Below are positions 5,118 to 34,012 of a stretch of 45,168 nt of DNA, one piece after another; the first letter of the stretch is position 1; every line of letters begins with the position of its first letter. Source of the DNA: a virus. Where the stretch lies: the UHGV virus genome UHGV-0041136. One strand, 5' to 3'. The position numbers and the translations under genes are program-made. Under the pieces are notes generated by a model, which worked only from the letters and a program-made list of their open reading frames with translations, searched no databases and had not been told where the DNA came from.

Positions 5118-5146
5118 ATAGTAGCCTATTCTATCTTAGTGTGCAA
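5118..5146 (-). promoter_or_regulatory. conserved promoter element, minus strand (-35 TTGCAC, 17 bp, -10 TACTAT) with AATAG-N4-CTATT inverted repeat
   Basis: plus strand tgAATAGtagcCTATTctatcttagtGTGCAAg; the same core recurs at 6468, 30060, 39165 and 41829. Confidence 0.5.
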
Positions 5147-5221
5147 GTTAATTTTATTGGTGTTTGTATTGTTGCATCTCCTGCAATAGTCGCTCCGATT
5201 GTTGCGTTTGGTGAAATAGAA

Positions 5222-9985: not shown

Positions 9986-10480
9986 ATGTTAGACCAATTC
10001 TTAAAATTACTGGAACGTTTCGTAGTTGCACATGAACTGATTGCCGCGAACAGTGCGAAACAAGTTGTCGTTGCTGAAGTAGATGGGTTAACCGCAGAGA
10101 CTAAAGAACAGGTGAAAGAAAAAGTAGTTAAAGCCGAAACAAAAGAAATCCCGGTGGAAGGCGAAGGCATCGTTGACACTAAACAGGCGGAAGAAGAGAA
10201 GCCTAAACGCAAGCCGCGTAAAGCTAAAGTAGAGGAGCCGACGCCAGAACCGGAAGAAGAGAAGGAAGAAGTTGATTACCAGTCTCTGCGTGACCAGATT
10301 CAGGCTATCGACGATGCGATTAACGAAGGTCCAAGCGATGCCGCGTGCGATGATTCTGATGAACTGCTGGAAGAGTTCACCGGTAAGAAAATGAAGATTG
10401 CTGCGATTAAAGACGAAGACCTGGCTGAATACCTGGAACGCCTCACAGCAATCAAGAACAAGTATTTCGAAGAAGAATAA
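9986..10480 (+). CDS. acidic/lysine-rich protein of unknown function
   Basis: ATG 9986 with GAGGAGAG SD; long E/K/P-rich segment, ends KYFEEE. Confidence 0.55.
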   Translation: MLDQFLKLLERFVVAHELIAANSAKQVVVAEVDGLTAETKEQVKEKVVKAETKEIPVEGEGIVDTKQAEEEKPKRKPRKAKVEEPTPEPEEEKEEVDYQSLRDQIQAIDDAINEGPSDAACDDSDELLEEFTGKKMKIAAIKDEDLAEYLERLTAIKNKYFEEE

Positions 10481-10488
10481 TTATCCCG

Positions 10489-10507
10489 GCGGCCTTCGGG
10501 CCGCTTT
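10489..10507 (+). terminator. hairpin GCGGCC-ttcg-GGCCGC followed by TTT
   Basis: UUCG tetraloop stem-loop directly after stop at 10480; short T tract. Confidence 0.4.
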
Positions 10508-10524
10508 AACTGAGGGTCGGAAAT

Positions 10525-10914
10525 ATGAAATACGAAGCTATGAGCGATTTTGAAATTAATTGTGCAGTGGCAGTCGCATTAGATTTGAATGAACATTTGT
10601 TCTTTCCATCTGGCGTCGATGACTTTGATAGTGATACTGATGATTCAGATATGGGGCCAGTGTGGCAAACACGAATGCCGTTTGTTAAAGGTTTTAGACC
10701 ATCTAATGGTAATTTATTCAACCCGTGCAACAACATAGATATTGCGTGGCAAATTATTACTCGAAATCATATATCGATTGAATGCGTTACGGTTAACCGA
10801 CATACGTTTACGTATAGGGCGTATCACTCGGCATCGTTCACCAAAAGTACGCACGAAAACCCACTCCGCGCCGCCATGATTGTATTTCTGAAAATGCAGG
10901 AGATGGCGCAATGA
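10525..10914 (+). CDS. hypothetical phage protein (possibly DUF2591-like)
   Basis: ATG 10525; motif LFNPCNNIDIAWQII; family assignment from memory only. Confidence 0.4.
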   Translation: MKYEAMSDFEINCAVAVALDLNEHLFFPSGVDDFDSDTDDSDMGPVWQTRMPFVKGFRPSNGNLFNPCNNIDIAWQIITRNHISIECVTVNRHTFTYRAYHSASFTKSTHENPLRAAMIVFLKMQEMAQ

Positions 10915-11183
10915 TTTACCAACTCTACCGCGCCGTCGACAGGCGGGATAACACGGAGGCGTTATGGCTATTGCGTGCGCCGTCCGGTGCGCACCAGATG
11001 GAAGAGATGGCGTACTTAGGCAAAGCACCGCGGCCTAAAGATATCGGCCGTCACGTGTCGCAGATTAAGCGCACGACTTTCGCCAAACCTGACTTTTATG
11101 TCTTCGAGTCGATGTATAGCTGGGCCTTACATTGTGACCACAAGACCAGACATTTAATTGACCAGTGGGAGAACAGGGCATGA
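10911..11183 (+). CDS. hypothetical protein
   Basis: ATGA overlap with upstream gene. Confidence 0.45.
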   Translation: MIYQLYRAVDRRDNTEALWLLRAPSGAHQMEEMAYLGKAPRPKDIGRHVSQIKRTTFAKPDFYVFESMYSWALHCDHKTRHLIDQWENRA

Positions 11184-12454
11184 TTCTAAAAGAACGCGGT
11201 GGCAATAACGATGTGCACGCCTTACTGTCGCCGTCTGGCGCTAAAAAGTGGCTAAGCTGCGCCGCATCACTGGCCTGTGAGAAAGATATTCCTAACACAT
11301 CCGGTAAAGCTGCGGTATTAGGCACGGCTATGCACACCATAGCTGAGATGCACCTTAACCAGTACATCAAAGGCACTGCGTTGCCGTTAGAGCGTGAAGT
11401 TGGTGCTTATGTTCTGGATGAGGGTAGAGGCCAGATTAAGGCGCTAATCAGCCCGATGAAAGGCGCGGTACTGATTACGGCTGACATGATTGAACAGGTT
11501 CGCAAGTACACCGACTACTGCAAAGCGATTATCGATGTAGCGACTTACGCCAAGCTGGAAATGCGCGTCAATCTTACTGAGGTATTGCATCCGGGTTACG
11601 AAGGCGTTGAGACGTTCGGGACCGCTGACCTTGTTGCCGTACAGGAACTGGCGAACACCGACGAGCACATGTTAATTATCGGTGACCTGAAAACAGGGCG
11701 ACATCGTGTTGAAGCAAAAGAAAACAAGCAGCTTATGCTTTACGCTCTCGGTGTTTATCGCCGACTCAAGAGACGTTACAACATCACAGTTGTGCGTCTG
11801 GTTATCTTCCAGCCGTATGCTGGAGGTGCGTCGGAGTGGGACATCTCGGTTGAAGGTCTGGAACTGTTCGCTAAGTTCGCACAGAAACGTGCGCTGTTAG
11901 CGCTTGATGCTTATTTCCGTGGCAAGAAGAATCTGAAAGCATCTGACTTCAGGCCGTCGGTAGATGGTTGTCAGTGGTGTCGGTTCGCTGAACAATGCGC
12001 TGCGCGTACAAAAACCGTTAACTCGGTACTGGCGGAAGAACTGGAAGACGACTTTGCGCTGGAACTGACGCCTGAGCAACTCGTAGCTGAGTATGAGAAG
12101 TTGCCGTTGCTGCGACAGCACATTGATAAGGTCGAGAAAGCTATGGCTGCCGCGTTGCATTCCGGTAAGAAAGTGCCGGGGTACAAGTTGGTAGAAGGAC
12201 GCCCAGGCAATCGTGCGTGGAAAGATGAAGACGCCGTAAATAAATTCAGAGAAAACCATGTAAACGGCTACTTATTAGATAAACTAGTGCCAGTTACCCC
12301 AACAGAAGCAGAAAAAACCATAGGTAAAATTGACCCAGAACTGTGGGAAGAATTGGCTAAACTCGTGACCCGTAAGCCAGGCGCGCCATGCGTCGCAACG
12401 GCAGATGACAAACGTCCTGAGTGGATTCAGGTAACAGAGGAGGATTTAGAATGA
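11180..12454 (+). CDS. PD-(D/E)XK nuclease, Cas4-like / DUF2800-type
   Basis: ATG 11180 (track starts at GTG 11165); N-terminal LLSPSGAKKWLSC; C-terminal cysteines DGCQWCRFAEQC typical of Cas4-like Fe-S nucleases; ends VTEEDLE. Confidence 0.6.
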   Translation: MILKERGGNNDVHALLSPSGAKKWLSCAASLACEKDIPNTSGKAAVLGTAMHTIAEMHLNQYIKGTALPLEREVGAYVLDEGRGQIKALISPMKGAVLITADMIEQVRKYTDYCKAIIDVATYAKLEMRVNLTEVLHPGYEGVETFGTADLVAVQELANTDEHMLIIGDLKTGRHRVEAKENKQLMLYALGVYRRLKRRYNITVVRLVIFQPYAGGASEWDISVEGLELFAKFAQKRALLALDAYFRGKKNLKASDFRPSVDGCQWCRFAEQCAARTKTVNSVLAEELEDDFALELTPEQLVAEYEKLPLLRQHIDKVEKAMAAALHSGKKVPGYKLVEGRPGNRAWKDEDAVNKFRENHVNGYLLDKLVPVTPTEAEKTIGKIDPELWEELAKLVTRKPGAPCVATADDKRPEWIQVTEEDLE

Positions 12455-12725: not shown

Positions 12726-13355
12726 ATGGGTATTAAACTGAATCTGCGTAAAGTAAACACTGCATGGGTTAACGTATTCGAACGCGCTGCTGATTCTGAG
12801 GACAAGAAAACCGGTAAACTGATTAAGGGCAAATATCAGGTTACGGTTCTTATGCAGCCTGACCATCCTCAAATTGATGCGCTTTATGATACCGCGTTGG
12901 AAGTTGTAACAGAGGCGATCGGGGCAGCTGCTGCTGAGAAATGGATGAAGGCGAACTACGGCGAAGACCACCATGCTGATAAATGCTGCGTCCGTGACCT
13001 GGCAATGCGCGACAATCCGATTGAAGATTTTGAAGAAGGTCTGTATTTCCGCGCTACTAACAACCGACAACCTGTGATTATGACATCGGCTAAAGGCGAA
13101 AAACAAACCGAGCCTGATTTCAACATCGACGGGAAGGAAATAGAAGGCGAGCAGGTATATAGCGGATGTGTCGCAAACGTATCTGTAGAGTTATGGTGGC
13201 ACAAAGATTGGAAAAACCTGTGCGCTACCATCCTCGGCATCAAGTATATGGGTGAAGGTAAACGCTTCGGCGGCTCCAGTGTAGTAGCGAGCACTGACGA
13301 CCTGGAAGACGACGAAGAAGATGCTGCACCACGCCGCGAACGTCGTCGCCGCTAA
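12726..13355 (+). CDS. ssDNA-binding-like protein (DUF2815-type)
   Basis: position between Cas4-like nuclease and DNA polymerase as in PolA-type phage modules; acidic C-terminal region DDLEDDEEDA then RRERRRR. Confidence 0.5.
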   Translation: MGIKLNLRKVNTAWVNVFERAADSEDKKTGKLIKGKYQVTVLMQPDHPQIDALYDTALEVVTEAIGAAAAEKWMKANYGEDHHADKCCVRDLAMRDNPIEDFEEGLYFRATNNRQPVIMTSAKGEKQTEPDFNIDGKEIEGEQVYSGCVANVSVELWWHKDWKNLCATILGIKYMGEGKRFGGSSVVASTDDLEDDEEDAAPRRERRRR

Positions 13356-29181: not shown

Positions 29182-29545
29182 CTTCTCTGCCCTCAAATAT
29201 TCCGTCTAAGCCCATGATAACCTCGGCTTCGAACAAACTTATGCCGTAACCGGCGACATCACGAAACGCTACCAAATCTTGCCATTTGAGCGCATCGCGC
29301 GGGATTATAACGATAGTATCATCTGTTTCGCGCTGTAGGAATTTAATGGCACGGTATTTCTCGAACACGTCGATAAGAGAAACGGGGCATTCTGGCCCCG
29401 TCGCTTCTTTCATCTGCGGTTCTTTAATCACACCCATTGCGACCAAAGCTGCTTGATGCCCCGCCGCGATGTCGTCGAATTGCTTACGTTTCTGGCGGTC
29501 GACAAAGCACCATTGCGCAAATTCATACAGCGCTTTTACTTTTCC
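29174..29545 (-). CDS. T segment of tail assembly chaperone GT (reached by -1 frameshift from G)
   Basis: -1 frame relative to G is open from GGAAAAG (29545..29539) to stop at 29174. Confidence 0.4.
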   Translation of the reverse strand, partial: GKVKALYEFAQWCFVDRQKRKQFDDIAAGHQAALVAMGVIKEPQMKEATGPECPVSLIDVFEKYRAIKFLQRETDDTIVIIPRDALKWQDLVAFRDVAGYGISLFEAEVIMGLDGIFEGREDG

Positions 29546-29952
29546 GAGAGTTTCTCACGGCTATCGGTGTGGTGTTTAACTACGGCTTCTGCCAGCCCGC
29601 TGTACTGGTCGAACAGGTTAGCCAGCGCCTCTTTGCTGAACGGTTCGTCGAATGACCAACCGGTGACGATTTCCACGGCAAGCTGCTTGTTAAGGTCCAT
29701 CACCCGCCAGCCCTTCTCGTCATTATAGCGCGCCCAGTTATTCAGCGCCTCGCACTCTTTATCTAATGGCGCGAGTTCTTCCGTAAGGCGTCGAATTGCC
29801 GTTGTGTAGGCGCGGCCTGCTCGAACGCCAGCATCGCAGTCTGGGCCAATGACTTGCAACCATTCGCCGGAGTCTTTACCACTCGGCAGAAGGATAGGCA
29901 TTTTAGTGCCGGCAGCGTGGCGGTCCGCAAAATAAAAATCAGAAAGTTTCAT
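29536..29952 (-). CDS. tail assembly chaperone (gpG-like)
   Basis: 138-aa ORF immediately upstream of tape measure; ends at slippery-like GGAAAAG-UAA. Confidence 0.5.
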   Translation of the reverse strand: MKLSDFYFADRHAAGTKMPILLPSGKDSGEWLQVIGPDCDAGVRAGRAYTTAIRRLTEELAPLDKECEALNNWARYNDEKGWRVMDLNKQLAVEIVTGWSFDEPFSKEALANLFDQYSGLAEAVVKHHTDSREKLSEK

Positions 29953-30059
29953 TCTTTAATCCTTTGGTTAAGAGGTTACAGGTTAAGGAAAATGCGCCAG
30001 ACGGGAACCACCCGCTTTTCGTGTGCGACACTAGGCGCAAACTTATTCTAGCACACTAC

Positions 30060-30089
30060 TTGCACACCCCAATATAATAGGGTACTATT
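30060..30089 (+). promoter_or_regulatory. conserved promoter element, plus strand (-35 TTGCAC, 17 bp, -10 TACTAT) with AATAGggtaCTATT
   Basis: cTTGCACaccccaatatAATAGggTACTATTcac, 28 nt upstream of ATG 30117. Confidence 0.5.
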
Positions 30090-30116
30090 CACCTGTAACT
30101 TACTGAGGAAATAATT

Positions 30117-30443
30117 ATGCGTAAATTAGTATTAGCTCTGGGGTTTATGTCTTTTGCTACTTTTGGGTCCCCGTGCGAACAGGTATTTAGTGAATCTGTT
30201 CTTATGGCTTCTGGTGCGCTTGAGAAAGCCGACCCTACTATTGTAAAGGCATTTAAGGACTCTACAGTTCGCGAGTGTGAGGCCGCCGTAGATGTCGGTA
30301 AATCGGGCCTACCCCCGCAAGCCGTAACATACACGGTAGTACGTTCGGTAGAGCAAAACGGAGACGCGTTTTATAGCCTACTGACAGCCACCCGTCTGCA
30401 AATGGTGATGACTGGATGGGCGATAGGCGCGGAAAGTAAATAG
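30117..30443 (+). CDS. secreted small protein (signal peptide)
   Basis: MRKLVLALGFMSFATFGSP... cleavable signal-like N-terminus; first gene of cassette A. Confidence 0.55.
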   Translation: MRKLVLALGFMSFATFGSPCEQVFSESVLMASGALEKADPTIVKAFKDSTVRECEAAVDVGKSGLPPQAVTYTVVRSVEQNGDAFYSLLTATRLQMVMTGWAIGAESK

Positions 30444-30507
30444 TCGCCTTTATTTAAAGGAATCCACTGTGGTTAAATAGGACAAATCCTAAGCACGAGG
30501 AATAAGC

Positions 30508-31638
30508 ATGGCCCGGAAGAAAATAACCGACGAACAGTTGCAGGAAGAATTGAACGCCGGTATGAAGAATATCGACATCGCCCGTAAATACGGCATCTCA
30601 GACCGCGTAATTCGCATCCGTAAAGCGAAGCTGGCTAAGAAAGGCGTAGGCCACGGGCGCGACGTCAGCCACCTTGTGCCAGATGGCTACAAGATTAAAG
30701 GAACGTCGTCCCTGGTGGACGAGTTTGGCAACACTAAGTTGCAATGGGTTAAGACTGACACCGATGCTGAACGTCAGGTCGAGTTGATGAAAGCCGTAAT
30801 TGAAGGCATGAAGTCAGAGATTACCCCCGTTGCGCCTGTTAAAGCGACTCGAGCCAAACGTGACGATAAACTGCTCAATCTTTACACTGTATCTGATTTC
30901 CATCTCGGTATGCTGGCATGGGCCGACGAGAGCGGCGACGACTGGGACATGAAGATTGCGGAAGACCTGTTCTCTCGATGGTTCGACGCTGCGTTTCAGA
31001 AGGCACCAGACGCCGGGACAGGGGTTATTAACCTGCTGGGCGACCTTGCGCACTTCGATAGTCTGGACGCGGTTACCCCCGCAAGTGGTCACGTTCTTGA
31101 CGCCGATACCCGCTACCAGAAACTTGTCCGCTACATGATTCGCATGGTCCGTCGTGTTGTTGATATGGCCCTTGTTAAGCATAAAAATGTTCGCTTGCTT
31201 ATTGTGCAAGGTAACCACGACGAGAGTGGCATGATTTGGTTGGCTGAGATGTTCAGTACGCTATACGACAACGAGCCGCGTGTGTTTGTCGATACGTCGC
31301 CGGATGTTTACAAAATGGTGCAACACGGCAAAACGACGCTGTTCTTTACACACGGGCATAAATGCCGGTTTGAGGTGGTCGAACCCATTATGATAGCTAA
31401 GTTCAGAAAAGCATTTGGCGAAAGCGAGTACAGTTACGCACATGTCGGGCATCTCCACCACCAAAAGATTGTAGAAAGTAGGAATATGGTGGTGGAGCAG
31501 CATCGCACTCTCGCGGCGAAAGATGCATATGCTTCTCGCGGCGGGTGGATGTCTAAGAGGTCCGCTAATGTCATAACCTATAGTTCAGAGTTCGGGGAAG
31601 TAGGTAGGCTTTCAATCTCACCGGAGATGCTAAGATGA
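30508..31638 (+). CDS. HTH-domain protein fused to calcineurin-like metallophosphoesterase
   Basis: N-terminal NIDIARKYGISDRVIRIRKAKL (HTH-like); MPP motifs VSDFHLG (DxH), GDLAHFD (GDxxD), GNHDE, FTHGH, GHLHH in canonical order. Confidence 0.7.
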   Translation: MARKKITDEQLQEELNAGMKNIDIARKYGISDRVIRIRKAKLAKKGVGHGRDVSHLVPDGYKIKGTSSLVDEFGNTKLQWVKTDTDAERQVELMKAVIEGMKSEITPVAPVKATRAKRDDKLLNLYTVSDFHLGMLAWADESGDDWDMKIAEDLFSRWFDAAFQKAPDAGTGVINLLGDLAHFDSLDAVTPASGHVLDADTRYQKLVRYMIRMVRRVVDMALVKHKNVRLLIVQGNHDESGMIWLAEMFSTLYDNEPRVFVDTSPDVYKMVQHGKTTLFFTHGHKCRFEVVEPIMIAKFRKAFGESEYSYAHVGHLHHQKIVESRNMVVEQHRTLAAKDAYASRGGWMSKRSANVITYSSEFGEVGRLSISPEMLR

Positions 31639-31865
31639 CTTCAAAATACAACCGAACAATGACAAATATTCACGGCAGCACTATGACGGTAGACGTTTAT
31701 GATGTGCTGCGTGCCTTCGATATCCGCGACCCGGCGTTACAGCACGCATTGAAGAAACTATTGTGTATGGGCCTTCGCGGACACAAAGACACAGGAACCG
31801 ACTTAGCAGAAGCAATTGAAAGTTTGGAGAAGTTACGGGAGTATAGAAGCAATATTGATGAGTAA
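31635..31865 (+). CDS. hypothetical small protein translationally coupled to the phosphoesterase
   Basis: ATGA overlap at 31635..31638. Confidence 0.45.
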   Translation: MTSKYNRTMTNIHGSTMTVDVYDVLRAFDIRDPALQHALKKLLCMGLRGHKDTGTDLAEAIESLEKLREYRSNIDE

Positions 31866-31869
31866 GAAA

Positions 31870-31889
31870 AAGGCCCCGAAAGGGGCCTT
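31870..31889 (+). other. stem-loop AAGGCCCC-gaaa-GGGGCCTT (GNRA loop) without T tract
   Basis: between 31865 and HNH gene. Confidence 0.35.
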
Positions 31890-31908: not shown

Positions 31909-32397
31909 ATGGATTGGAATGAATTTTTCATATACGACTTAATTTCAGGAAGGATATTTAACAGAGTAACACGGTCCGGGAGGGCTAAGGCTGGAGAGGA
32001 GGCGGGTACTATACAGCGAGACGGATATAGAAGGATATTTTTCAGAGGCAAATGGCACGCGGCGCACCGTATAGCATGGGACTTAAACAATCCTAACGAT
32101 AAGCTAACGTCGTCAGATCAAATAGACCATCTAGACCATAACCGAATAAACAATAGACCGCTTAACTTAGCTAAAAAGTCCAATGCGGAAAACCATAAAA
32201 ATATGTCAAAACAGCGTAATAATAAATCAGGAGTAACTGGGGTTTACTGGAATGCAAAAGAAAGGTTGTGGTATGCACAGATATTCAACAATAACGTAAA
32301 AACGCATATAGGGTGCTTTAAGACGCTACTAGATGCAGTTGCCGCGAGGAGAGTTGCTGAAAGAGATTTGGGGTTCCACAATAACCACGGCAAATAG
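31909..32397 (+). CDS. HNH homing endonuclease with AP2-type DNA-binding domain
   Basis: HNH core GKWHAAHRIAW...IDHLDHNRINNRPLNL...NH; C-terminal GVTGVYWNAKERLWYAQIFNNNVKTHIGCFKTLLDA resembles AP2; AT-rich codon usage. Confidence 0.7.
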   Translation: MDWNEFFIYDLISGRIFNRVTRSGRAKAGEEAGTIQRDGYRRIFFRGKWHAAHRIAWDLNNPNDKLTSSDQIDHLDHNRINNRPLNLAKKSNAENHKNMSKQRNNKSGVTGVYWNAKERLWYAQIFNNNVKTHIGCFKTLLDAVAARRVAERDLGFHNNHGK

Positions 32398-32399
32398 TA

Positions 32400-32425
32400 A
32401 GGCCCCGTTATGGGGCCTTTTTCTT
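32400..32425. terminator. bidirectional terminator AGGCCCC-gttat-GGGGCCT + T-run
   Basis: ends cassette A on plus strand and follows the major tail gene stop on minus strand. Confidence 0.55.
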
Positions 32426-33593
32426 ACGCGTAACTAATCCGCTGTATTACAATAGAGGATTGATATTGATTGCCTGTGGACTGTCCTTCTATGCTTTGAG
32501 TGATTGACTCAGGCCCCCCGATCTCTGGTGTAACCGCTGTGAGTTCCGCGCGTTTCAGACTGAAAGACATAGCCCCGTTTACCCCCGCCAGAATAGAGTT
32601 AATCTCTACCTGCTGTTCGTTGATAAACTTCTGAATCATCGCCATGTCGTACAGCTTACCAGAGATAGAGAAGGTGTTGGCCGCGCGACCACGTTCCACG
32701 AACGCCACGCTACTGTTGCCAAGTTCGAACTGCGCGGAAGCACCGTTGTCGTTGGTGATGGTCAGGCTATCGCAACGCAACGGGGTTGCGCCGTCGAACA
32801 CGGAAACGTCAACCGAAGAGAACGGCTCGTCGCCAAACGTGACAGAGGAGAAATCAGAACCAGACGGCGGCGCGGTAAGAATTTCCTGGCTCAGACCGAT
32901 GAACGGGAAGCTGCCGGTTACCATAGCGTTTACGGCCTGCTCGATGGTGAAACCGGAGATTTCCACGCCTTTGGTCAACATGTACGCGTCCGGGTTCCCG
33001 CACTGCCCTTTGAACCATGTCAGGATGGAGAACGTCTTACACGCGTTACCGGTTTCCAGTTTATCGCCAGTTTTACCGTCGGTCTCGATAGGTCCTTCGG
33101 CGGTCAGGGTGTGTTGAATACCCGCACCCGTAACCACAGTAGCAGTTACTGCGGTAACGATGAACGGCTTAGAGTTATCACCGGTTAAAGCGTCAAAATA
33201 CAGAAGGTCCCCGACCTCTACGCCGTCAGTAATGAAGCTGCCGGTGGTGCGGGTAAAGGTTTTAGCCACAGGGTCTACCGTAATGCCAACAGCGGATAAG
33301 GTTACCCCATCCTGCCACGTAGACGTCATCGCGCCCGCGAGGAAATCATCCTGGCTACGGGAGCTAAGTTCGATGGCATACTCCCCGCTAACCTGCTTGT
33401 TACCGGTTCGGATGGATGTAGTTTCACGGCTGCCGTCCAGCTCGTTGGAAGTCAGCGCATCGCGGGTTACCGCAGGAACGCCGCCAGTGTTGCGCAACGG
33501 CGACCAGACCGGGTTACTTGGGGTTACGCCCGGGGTCACTTCCGCCACATAGAATTGCGCGGTATTCGCGCCCTTAAAAGGAGTTGTAGCCAT
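32424..33593 (-). CDS. major tail protein
   Basis: about 390 aa, T/S/G-rich, upstream of chaperone/TMP; ATG 33593 (track GTG 33599). Confidence 0.6.
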   Translation of the reverse strand: MATTPFKGANTAQFYVAEVTPGVTPSNPVWSPLRNTGGVPAVTRDALTSNELDGSRETTSIRTGNKQVSGEYAIELSSRSQDDFLAGAMTSTWQDGVTLSAVGITVDPVAKTFTRTTGSFITDGVEVGDLLYFDALTGDNSKPFIVTAVTATVVTGAGIQHTLTAEGPIETDGKTGDKLETGNACKTFSILTWFKGQCGNPDAYMLTKGVEISGFTIEQAVNAMVTGSFPFIGLSQEILTAPPSGSDFSSVTFGDEPFSSVDVSVFDGATPLRCDSLTITNDNGASAQFELGNSSVAFVERGRAANTFSISGKLYDMAMIQKFINEQQVEINSILAGVNGAMSFSLKRAELTAVTPEIGGPESITQSIEGQSTGNQYQSSIVIQRISYA

Positions 33594-33595
33594 AT

Positions 33596-34012
33596 TCACA
33601 GCCTCTTGGTGAATGCAATAAAGTTAATTGACAATGGTCGTTTGGCCCATCCGTTTTCTACAATCAGCGGCCCCAGGCTAACCGATTGAACCTCGGCGCA
33701 GATGTCGTTACGTGAAAATGACTTACCTGCTTTAAACGCCGTGTTAAGTAAGTCTGCCATTTTATTGATTGGCGCGCTACCTTTCACCGATGCGTAGTTA
33801 ATGTCGACCTGATAGACGCCAGCGCGTTGTTCCGTGAAGAACAAATCCGCTTGCTCGGTATCCGCAAGTAACATGTAACTTGCCAGATACGGCGTATCGG
33901 TTGACGTCGGTGCGTCGATATTTTCGAGCGCGACCTTGATGCCGTTGGCGGATCCGAAAGCTACCAGCGGCACGTCGAACGCTTTGGTTAAGTCCTCAAA
34001 GTAGCCCATCAT
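33596..34012 (-). CDS. tail terminator / tail completion protein candidate
   Basis: synteny immediately upstream of major tail gene. Confidence 0.4.
   Translation of the reverse strand: MMGYFEDLTKAFDVPLVAFGSANGIKVALENIDAPTSTDTPYLASYMLLADTEQADLFFTEQRAGVYQVDINYASVKGSAPINKMADLLNTAFKAGKSFSRNDICAEVQSVSLGPLIVENGWAKRPLSINFIAFTKRL

Follow-up and report, generated by a model that had tools for sequence, protein, structure and literature searches.

What is a gene for a metallophosphoesterase (MPE) with an N-terminal helix-turn-helix (HTH) doing among the tail genes of a siphovirus, and on the strand opposite to them? The question arises from the viral genome UHGV-0041136, a stretch of 45,168 nt (hereafter the window, meaning all of the DNA analysed) that corresponds to a near-complete Kagunavirus-type siphovirus genome (Guernseyvirinae), in which the MPE gene is followed by a small open reading frame (ORF) of 76 codons (Table 1). 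A preliminary description of this DNA had taken the two genes for a coupled unit, carried as opposite-strand cargo under its own operator-bearing promoter, and had not recognised the architecture as that of a characterised phage function. Our results indicate that the MPE has an intact binuclear active site in a compact core, which lies nearest to PolD DP1, Mre11 and SbcD and comes after a basic HTH. The protein is the Kagunavirus orthologue of gp16 of phage T1, and we propose, with a probability of about 0.5, that it is a DNA-tethered, Mn-dependent nuclease or phosphodiesterase that acts in phage DNA or nucleotide metabolism.

Is the active site that of a working enzyme? In an alignment of 103 diverse MPE homologues, with a mean column identity of 36%, all metal ligands of the superfamily are present (D130-x-H132, G178-D179-x-x-H182-x-D184, G235-N236-H237-D238, H282 and G314-H315-x-H317). 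D130, H132, G178, D179, N236, H237, H282, G314 and H317 are invariant, and H182, D184, D238 and H315 are conserved in at least 90% of the sequences. The full motif set noticed in the preliminary description is therefore a property of the family, and the metal ligands, whose loss would have told against an enzyme, have been kept. An AlphaFold2 model built from the same alignment (mean pLDDT 93) contains the beta-sandwich MPE fold and stops with the last core strands (aa 370–376), with no C-terminal capping domain. The core also displays two family-specific conserved loops, VTPxSGHxLDADxR (aa 189–202) and TLAAxDAYAxRGG (aa 334–346). The HTH that had been suspected at the N-terminus is modelled as a three-helix unit at pLDDT ~92 (helices 8–16, 21–28 and 32–44), and its matches to GerE, FixJ, RhlR, DesR and sigma-H, individually weak, are mutually consistent. 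Residues 1–60 have a pI of 10.1, the N-terminal pI is above 9 in 71% of the family, and other annotators name this part of the protein wHTH or sigma-70 r4. Within the protein, conservation is lowest in the HTH region.

The structural comparisons point to the kind of MPE. Scores of the model were highest against the PolD DP1 proofreading exonuclease (15.9), Mre11 (15.1) and SbcD (15.0), followed by LpxH (13.8), MJ0936 (13.5), YfcE (13.0) and Rv0805 (12.2), with a nuclease MPE at 9.4 and the protein phosphatases PP5 and PP1 at 9.3–8.6. Foldseek also placed Mre11 at the top (E 2e-8, TM ~0.42), so that nucleases rank above phosphodiesterases in both fold searches. Because the gradient of scores is shallow, the predicted fold favours a nuclease without proving it. 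The family profile searched against the PDB gave the Mre11/SbcD of T. maritima as its best match, a weak one (E 0.14), in which SDWHLG and GDLLH of the latter align to TDxHLG and GDFLH of the family; the single MPE sequence had no significant match in the PDB, and in NCBIfam only FixJ and PdeM were matched, at noise level. A lambda-type Ser/Thr phosphatase of the PPP class is disfavoured, given that the GDxVDRG and GNHE signatures are absent and that the PPP enzymes are not the closest fold. Among the enzyme classes considered in the preliminary description, a phosphoesterase stands, with a nuclease as the best option from the fold searches, and nothing specific to the degradation of cyclic-nucleotide signals was found.

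Neither the gene nor its architecture is new to the databases. The MPE matches PHROG 704 ("DNA repair exonuclease") with an E value of 1.2e-165, residues 4–375 being aligned to positions 2–389 of a 390-position profile, and this family includes ST16 of phage T1, ORF17 of phage K1H and the 'putative phosphoesterase' of Jersey/SETP3-type phages. The protein shares 99.5% identity with gp31 of phage EC3-1, which is annotated as a calcineurin-like phosphoesterase, and 45% identity, over 99% of its length, with T1 ST16 (gp16). Homologues were found by tblastn in 2039 phage records. An exhaustive search returned 4677 clusters at 50% identity, 1154 of them at E ≤1e-30, and nearly all of the best 150 of the 4677 have 370–420 aa and the same architecture. 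Across ~2000 phage genomes, the GenBank labels read calcineurin-like phosphoesterase, DNA repair exonuclease or wHTH/sigma-70 r4 protein. The family, the classical phage T1 included, is already catalogued, and public annotation covers the gene together with its motifs and HTH, where the preliminary description had seen an unfamiliar architecture; 'DNA repair exonuclease' is a computational family label. Some phages carry the MPE as N- and C-terminal halves or as fragments of ~205 aa (P0122, P0159; H57, Klebsiella phage vB_kpnM_D1), and the separate PHROGs 20703 and 20762 match aa 1–195 and 260–374. These split genes suggest interruption by mobile elements or frameshifts, in keeping with the HNH homing-endonuclease genes that recurrently adjoin the MPE across phages.

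Is the MPE then cargo? Among Salmonella-phage records, the MPE was counted 373 times, the small ORF 371 times and the tail-chaperone marker of the group 357 times. Since the MPE is as frequent as the marker, it is effectively core in Guernseyvirinae. The gene is co-oriented with those of a primase-helicase, a PD-(D/E)XK exonuclease, a Gp2.5-like annealing protein, a DNA polymerase, a methyltransferase and a helicase. Its place differs between phage families: in Drexlerviridae it is the last gene of a helicase / VRR-NUC / Dam module, with the lysis cassette next to come, Dhillonvirus-like and Jedunavirus genomes have it ahead of the terminase genes, and in one metagenomic phage (L020) the genes before it encode an AAA_24 ATPase and an exonuclease of the DUF3799 type. 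Given this core status and the co-orientation with replication genes, comparative gene content argues that the MPE is a conserved DNA-metabolism gene rather than cargo or a moron, as had first been supposed from its position.

The neighbours of the MPE offer a second line of evidence. We collected 80 viral contig loci, with MPE identities of 47–96%, by means of a 12-sequence alignment, and scored their ORFs by hmmsearch and tblastn. In 25 of the 80, the MPE is flanked by the tail-chaperone and tail-tube genes, which is the arrangement of Guernseyvirinae. In 14 of these 25 the slot after the MPE holds the 76-aa ORF, which overlaps the MPE stop codon in six and lies 97–1272 nt away in the others. 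In nine, which are Kagunavirus loci, it holds instead a translationally coupled pair that encodes a HAD phosphatase and a 184-aa Walker-A (P-loop) protein; the remaining two are short contigs, uninformative or with neither. The 76-aa ORF and the HAD–kinase cassette never occur together in the sampled loci, and whole genomes display the same alternation: K1H has the HAD and kinase genes and no 76-aa homologue, and in Bas75 and the window the 76-aa ORF is present and the HAD and kinase genes are both missing. The HAD protein matches HAD_PNKP (PF25109) with an E value of 7e-20, its best PDB relatives being Pnkp1 and the phosphatase domain of T4 PNK. The P-loop protein belongs to PHROG 139, a dNMP-kinase family (E 1.4e-41); with the PDB sequences of dNMP and polynucleotide kinases, its Walker A alone could be aligned. 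Linkage of the MPE to the HAD gene, with or without the kinase gene, is also seen in Klebsiella Jedunavirus and in six more loci that have different flanks (MPE identity 49–55%). In T1 the HAD/kinase pair lies elsewhere in the genome than the MPE and is split by an HNH gene (L102, 4948–6534). The cassette lies at 10442–11481 in K1H (L028/L103) and at 1904–3019 in L003.

The cassette may encode either a PNK-like enzyme in two parts or two enzymes of salvage. Its recurrent coupling to the MPE suggests that the latter is placed, functionally, next to polynucleotide-3'-end or nucleotide processing. The alternation of the 76-aa ORF with the cassette may, to judge from these gene orders, represent a functional substitution.

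As to the small ORF itself, homologues are present in 774 phage records and share a sharply conserved core, KYxR...DVYDVLxAF...PAxQHALKKxLCxGLRGHKD...DLxEA. The AlphaFold2 model (pLDDT 87) consists of a beta-hairpin and three helices. In BFVD, the best matches of this model were members of its own family, followed by DUF3310, SaV-like and T7 gp1.7-type "nucleotide kinase" entries (TM 0.65–0.72, E 8e-3 to 6e-2), and residues 122–184 of T7 gp1.7 correspond to Pfam DUF3310. The modelled structures thus suggest a kinship to DUF3310 at the level of the fold only, and the GenBank label 'DUF3310' of the small ORF was reproduced neither by Pfam nor by hhalign. The 76-aa-type domain also occurs in fusions, at the C-terminus of proteins of 220–255 aa and at the N-terminus of a BRCT-containing protein. 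No catalytic domain was demonstrable in the fusion partners, in which neither a Walker A nor a ligase domain could be detected, and only a BRCT was recognised. Labels such as 'DNA ligase', 'terminase ATPase subunit' and PHROG 'ATPase' are attached to such genes (L014, 2420–3829, Aeromonas phage AhMtk13b; L012, 2066–2728; L013, 1949–2716) and look like propagated mis-annotations.

The small ORF does not follow the MPE faithfully. The preliminary description had treated it as the coupled partner of the enzyme, yet direct coupling is kept in six of the 14 relatives that have it, it is absent in nine close relatives, and in Drexlerviridae the two genes are unlinked: in Braunvirinae the small gene stands by itself, as an early gene, at a distance of 8 kb from the MPE. 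The homologue is absent from T1 and from K1H-type genomes, and in several relatives HNH genes are inserted between the MPE and the 76-aa ORF. Comparative gene order hence indicates a separate, mobile and interchangeable accessory factor, not an obligate subunit of the MPE. In the otherwise intact locus L058 (6682–6913, Salmonella phage wksl3-like), the small ORF is broken into pieces of 61 and 49 aa, which hints at a dispensable small protein or at a sequencing error. In L019 and L005, which have distant MPE genes, ORFs of 77 and 55 aa overlap the 3' end of the MPE; they were considered as members and found to be unrelated to the 76-aa family.

How would such an MPE act? The HTH would tether the protein to DNA, and the core would act on DNA or polynucleotide ends as a Mn2+-dependent nuclease or phosphodiesterase, without a Rad50/SbcC clamp, in the early or middle phase. 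By analogy, the MPE may work like a stand-alone MPE nuclease. Its products would pass to 3'-phosphatase and nucleotide-kinase functions where these are present, a step that we propose because the gene is coupled, in many phages, to a HAD polynucleotide-3'-phosphatase and a dNMP-kinase-like protein. The likeliest role would be the breakdown or processing of DNA, either the host chromosome or replication and recombination intermediates, in support of phage DNA synthesis. Of the specific roles, the most attractive is that host DNA is broken down for nucleotide salvage; circumstantial support comes from a Tunavirinae phage whose restriction depends on a defence system that detects the m6dAMP released as host DNA is degraded (bioRxiv 10.64898/2026.01.15.699771). 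A bolder version, which we regard as doubtful, is that the MPE is the sought stand-alone nuclease that degrades host DNA for nucleotide salvage in T1-like, Jersey-like and related lytic phages, an analogue of T5 A1 or of T4 DenA/gp46-47, and that the 76-aa protein is a minimal substitute for the HAD–kinase cassette. Were it true, the MPE would yield degradation products, e.g. m6dAMP or dinucleotides, that are sensed by Metis, PUA-Cal-HAD and ApeA. The calcineurin-like proteins described in the Metis and PUA-Cal-HAD papers are host defence proteins and were set aside as not being the phage MPE.

The family is very widespread, core and, by sequence, catalytically intact in lytic siphoviruses, among them therapeutic phages of Klebsiella, Salmonella and E. 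coli. If the MPE is a host-DNA-degrading or DNA-processing nuclease, it would tie these phages to the defence systems that sense products of genome degradation. The mutually exclusive swap between the small ORF and the HAD–kinase cassette provides, in addition, a cheap handle on what DUF3310-type proteins do.

Several observations weigh against a DNA-tethered nuclease of this kind. The Pfam MPE models PF00149 and PF12850 score below their gathering thresholds (25.2 vs 27 bits and 19.5 vs 21.5); the profile and fold checks proposed in the preliminary description yielded an Mre11-like core and an HTH by fold, and Pfam scores that fall just short. We consider that the motif and model evidence outweighs these scores, and that the protein is a divergent calcineurin-like subfamily. 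The capping domain of Mre11 and SbcD is absent from the MPE, which adds an N-terminal HTH instead, and no Rad50/SbcC ATPase is annotated in the Bas75, K1H and T1 genomes or in the neighbourhoods examined; on these two grounds, the MPE was rejected as an Mre11 proper. The window has its own PD-(D/E)XK exonuclease and Gp2.5-like single-stranded DNA (ssDNA)-annealing protein, which already serve recombination. Given this separate pair, the MPE, in spite of its label 'DNA repair exonuclease', is probably not the main recombination nuclease of the phage; paralogy of the two 'exonucleases' was rejected (hhalign 0.5%). For the small ORF, none of 23 members of its family matched PF11753 (DUF3310) at E values up to 1, and hhalign gave a probability of 0.3% against T7 gp1.7. 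The alternation after the MPE may be a mere recombination hot spot. In the literature on Drexlerviridae, Guernseyvirinae and defence-escape loci, no functional study of the MPE family was found. Finally, linkage to the HAD and kinase genes fits the healing of RNA or DNA ends equally with salvage.

This last point leads to the first of the rival explanations, which we rank in the order end-healing, regulation and signal degradation. The MPE could be a 2',3'-cyclic phosphodiesterase or 3'-phosphoesterase that acts on broken RNA or DNA ends; it would join a HAD 3'-phosphatase and a P-loop 5'-kinase to counter host anticodon nucleases or to mend nicked DNA. According to work from the Shuman laboratory, such activities on ends are reportedly found in the calcineurin-type phosphoesterase domain of bacterial Pnkp and in lambda phosphatase. 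The recurrent coupling to a phosphatase of the HAD_PNKP type, with Pnkp1 and T4 PNK as its relatives, speaks for this explanation, as does the coupling to a P-loop kinase that the PDB sequences cannot assign to the dNMP or the polynucleotide kinases, and the BRCT protein of L014 that is labelled ligase carries the small-protein domain at its N-terminus. However, the MPE would be redundant beside a HAD_PNKP phosphatase that already heals 3' ends, and PHROG puts the kinase among the dNMP kinases with the E value given above. No ligase is annotated in Kagunavirus genomes, the phage of the window and most family members keep the MPE without the HAD/kinase pair, and the HTH points to double-stranded DNA (dsDNA) rather than tRNA. 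We therefore hold end-healing to be improbable, though it is the best of the alternatives.

Alternatively, the MPE may be mainly a DNA-binding regulator, of an early-to-late switch or of host shut-off, with an auxiliary or sensing catalytic domain, partly analogous to T5 A1. Its HTH is of the LuxR/sigma-70-r4 type and gives a weak match to phrog_836 'late transcriptional activator' (E 9e-4), the gene is often found where DNA-metabolism genes give way to late ones (lysis, terminase or tail), conserved repeats are present in the neighbouring divergent promoter region, and T5 A1 has been reported to be pleiotropic (bioRxiv 10.64898/2026.04.02.716235). Against this stand the strict retention of all catalytic residues in >100 diverse sequences, which argues that selection is on catalysis, the position of the HTH as the most variable part of the protein, and a kinship to T5 A1 at superfamily level only (hhalign 17%). 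A regulator is thus unlikely. An enzyme that degrades the nucleotide second messengers of CBASS, Pycsar, Thoeris or type III CRISPR, as the preliminary description had suggested, is a shade less likely again: the superfamily does include phosphodiesterases, but nucleases precede these in both fold searches, an HTH has no obvious role in a soluble small-molecule hydrolase, and no support was found in the literature. In addition, known anti-defence genes are typically sporadic accessories, whereas the MPE is core, syntenic and highly conserved in the DNA-metabolism modules of several lytic families. Least of all do we expect a moron-encoded two-gene unit for defence or superinfection exclusion, or a lambda-type protein phosphatase, for, although the unit lies on the opposite strand within the tail cluster and adjoins a slot where relatives have Sie-like genes, and although PPP phosphatases fall within the MPE superfamily, this explanation is largely refuted by comparative data: the MPE is core and present in strictly lytic phages including T1, and the MPE and the 76-aa ORF are not kept as a pair. 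PADLOC gives no match.

A region of 3.1 kb around the MPE was matched by megablast in 402 phage records, the top matches having 90–94% identity. Both ORFs are real and overlap through an ATGA, as first described (ATG 31635–37, TGA 31636–38); a Shine-Dalgarno-like GAGG (30497–30500) precedes the MPE and a GGAG (31623–26) the small ORF, with a spacing of 7–8 nt. It also holds that the unit, on the + strand, lies opposite to the tail genes, since the tail-assembly-chaperone/tape-measure genes and the tail-tube gene on its two sides are all on the – strand. An operator-bearing promoter of its own is another matter. A scan for promoter-like sequences was at chance (3 found vs 3.6 ± 1.6 expected), and nothing shows that the conserved GTGTGC/GCACAC repeats (30021–30067) of the divergent intergenic region are an operator. 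This region has a mean column identity of 81% among five relatives, one of them a Jerseyvirus, and its TATAAT (30073–78) is the sole conserved –10-like element; since it lies upstream of ORF108 and not directly of the MPE, the latter would be the second gene of a unit of three to four genes. The candidate transcription unit on the + strand consists of ORF108, the MPE, the 76-aa ORF and an HNH gene, and is followed by a terminator. In the same intergenic region, a GC hairpin with a T-run (GCGGGAACCACCCGC TTTTC, 30000–30019) is invariant in five relatives, including a Jerseyvirus with diverged surroundings, and may serve as a terminator-like insulator or form a structure in the 5'-UTR (untranslated region) of the tail-chaperone/tape-measure mRNA.

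ORF108 begins with a hydrophobic, signal-like segment (MRKLVLALGFMSFATFG...), and neither it nor the MPE nor the small ORF had a match in PADLOC-DB at E values up to 1. The slot upstream of the MPE is variable, with ORF108 in six of the sampled loci and a phrog_1039-type superinfection-immunity (Sie-like) gene in 16; from this variation it is the ORF108/Sie-like slot, and not the MPE, that looks like the real moron or exclusion slot of the island. At the other end, two copies of a hairpin with an A/T run (31866–31889 and 32399–32429) bracket the HNH gene in inverted orientation, each of them abutting a stop codon. In a relative that lacks the HNH gene (Henuyfy11N, L002, ~5125–5150), just one hairpin separates the + strand genes from the convergent tail-tube gene, from which it appears that the HNH gene was inserted at a bidirectional terminator and duplicated it. 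The position of the HNH gene differs among relatives, and it is no part of the function of the MPE.

Table 1. Coordinates of the MPE gene, its protein domains and the surrounding features in the window.
Feature	Coordinates	Strand	Protein	Remarks
PD-(D/E)XK exonuclease gene	11165..12454	+		phrog_69
Gp2.5-like ssDNA-annealing protein gene	12726..13355	+		phrog_112
Tail-assembly chaperone gene	29536..29952	–
Divergent intergenic region	29953..30116			between tail chaperone (–) and ORF108 (+); candidate promoter region of the + unit
ORF108	30117..30443	+	small protein	first gene of the + unit; phrog_14165, E 8.5e-54
HTH-MPE gene	30508..31638	+	376 aa	PHROG 704 / T1 gp16 family
N-terminal basic three-helix HTH	30529..30639	+	aa 8–44	LuxR/GerE / sigma-70 region 4-like
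Linker module	30688..30816	+	aa 61–103	beta-hairpin and helix; G74 and W80 conserved in at least 90%
Binuclear MPE core	30862..31635	+	aa 119–376	all metal ligands
Small ORF	31635..31865	+	76 aa	putative DUF3310/SaV-like fold (model); accessory, variable slot
Terminator hairpin, copy 1	31870..31889			GC-rich (AAGGCCCCgaaaGGGGCCTT); directly after the small ORF
HNH homing-endonuclease gene	31909..32397	+		at the terminator; Pfam HNH_3; phrog_99, E 8e-49
Terminator hairpin, copy 2	32399..32419			inverted; abuts the stop codon of the tail-tube gene
Tail-tube gene	32424..33599	–

Compared with known systems, the MPE core resembles that of Mre11 and SbcD, with ~12–17% identity over ~190 aligned residues. 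The archaeal PolD DP1, a 3'-5' proofreading exonuclease, has an OB fold and works as part of a polymerase heterodimer; the MPE has neither such a fold nor a polymerase partner. PdeM, the ligase-associated nuclease MPE of Pseudomonas putida (6nvo), has ~200 aa, no HTH and a lower structural score than Mre11 and DP1. Among the phage proteins, T5 A1 is a predicted metallophosphatase that is necessary and sufficient for degradation of the host chromosome (bioRxiv 10.64898/2026.04.02.716235). Like the MPE, it is a phage-encoded member of the superfamily tied to DNA-binding functions, and the GNHD strand and an 'S-x-WL' align; unlike the MPE, it has 556 aa and belongs to PHROG 1745. Orthology was rejected, as there was no BLASTP match, the hhalign alignment covered 20 columns and the PHROGs are separate, so that T5 A1 may be regarded as a functional analogue with superfamily-level kinship. 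As for the small ORF, the DUF3310, SaV and T7 gp1.7 C-terminal domains may, by the model matches, have a similar hairpin-plus-helices fold, and are likewise small early phage proteins, sometimes fused; compared with T7 gp1.7, the 76-aa ORF spans only the DUF3310-like part, and kinase activity cannot be assumed. The closest counterparts of the MPE are the members of PHROG 704, which have the same HTH, hairpin and MPE core, with no architectural difference from the protein of the window.

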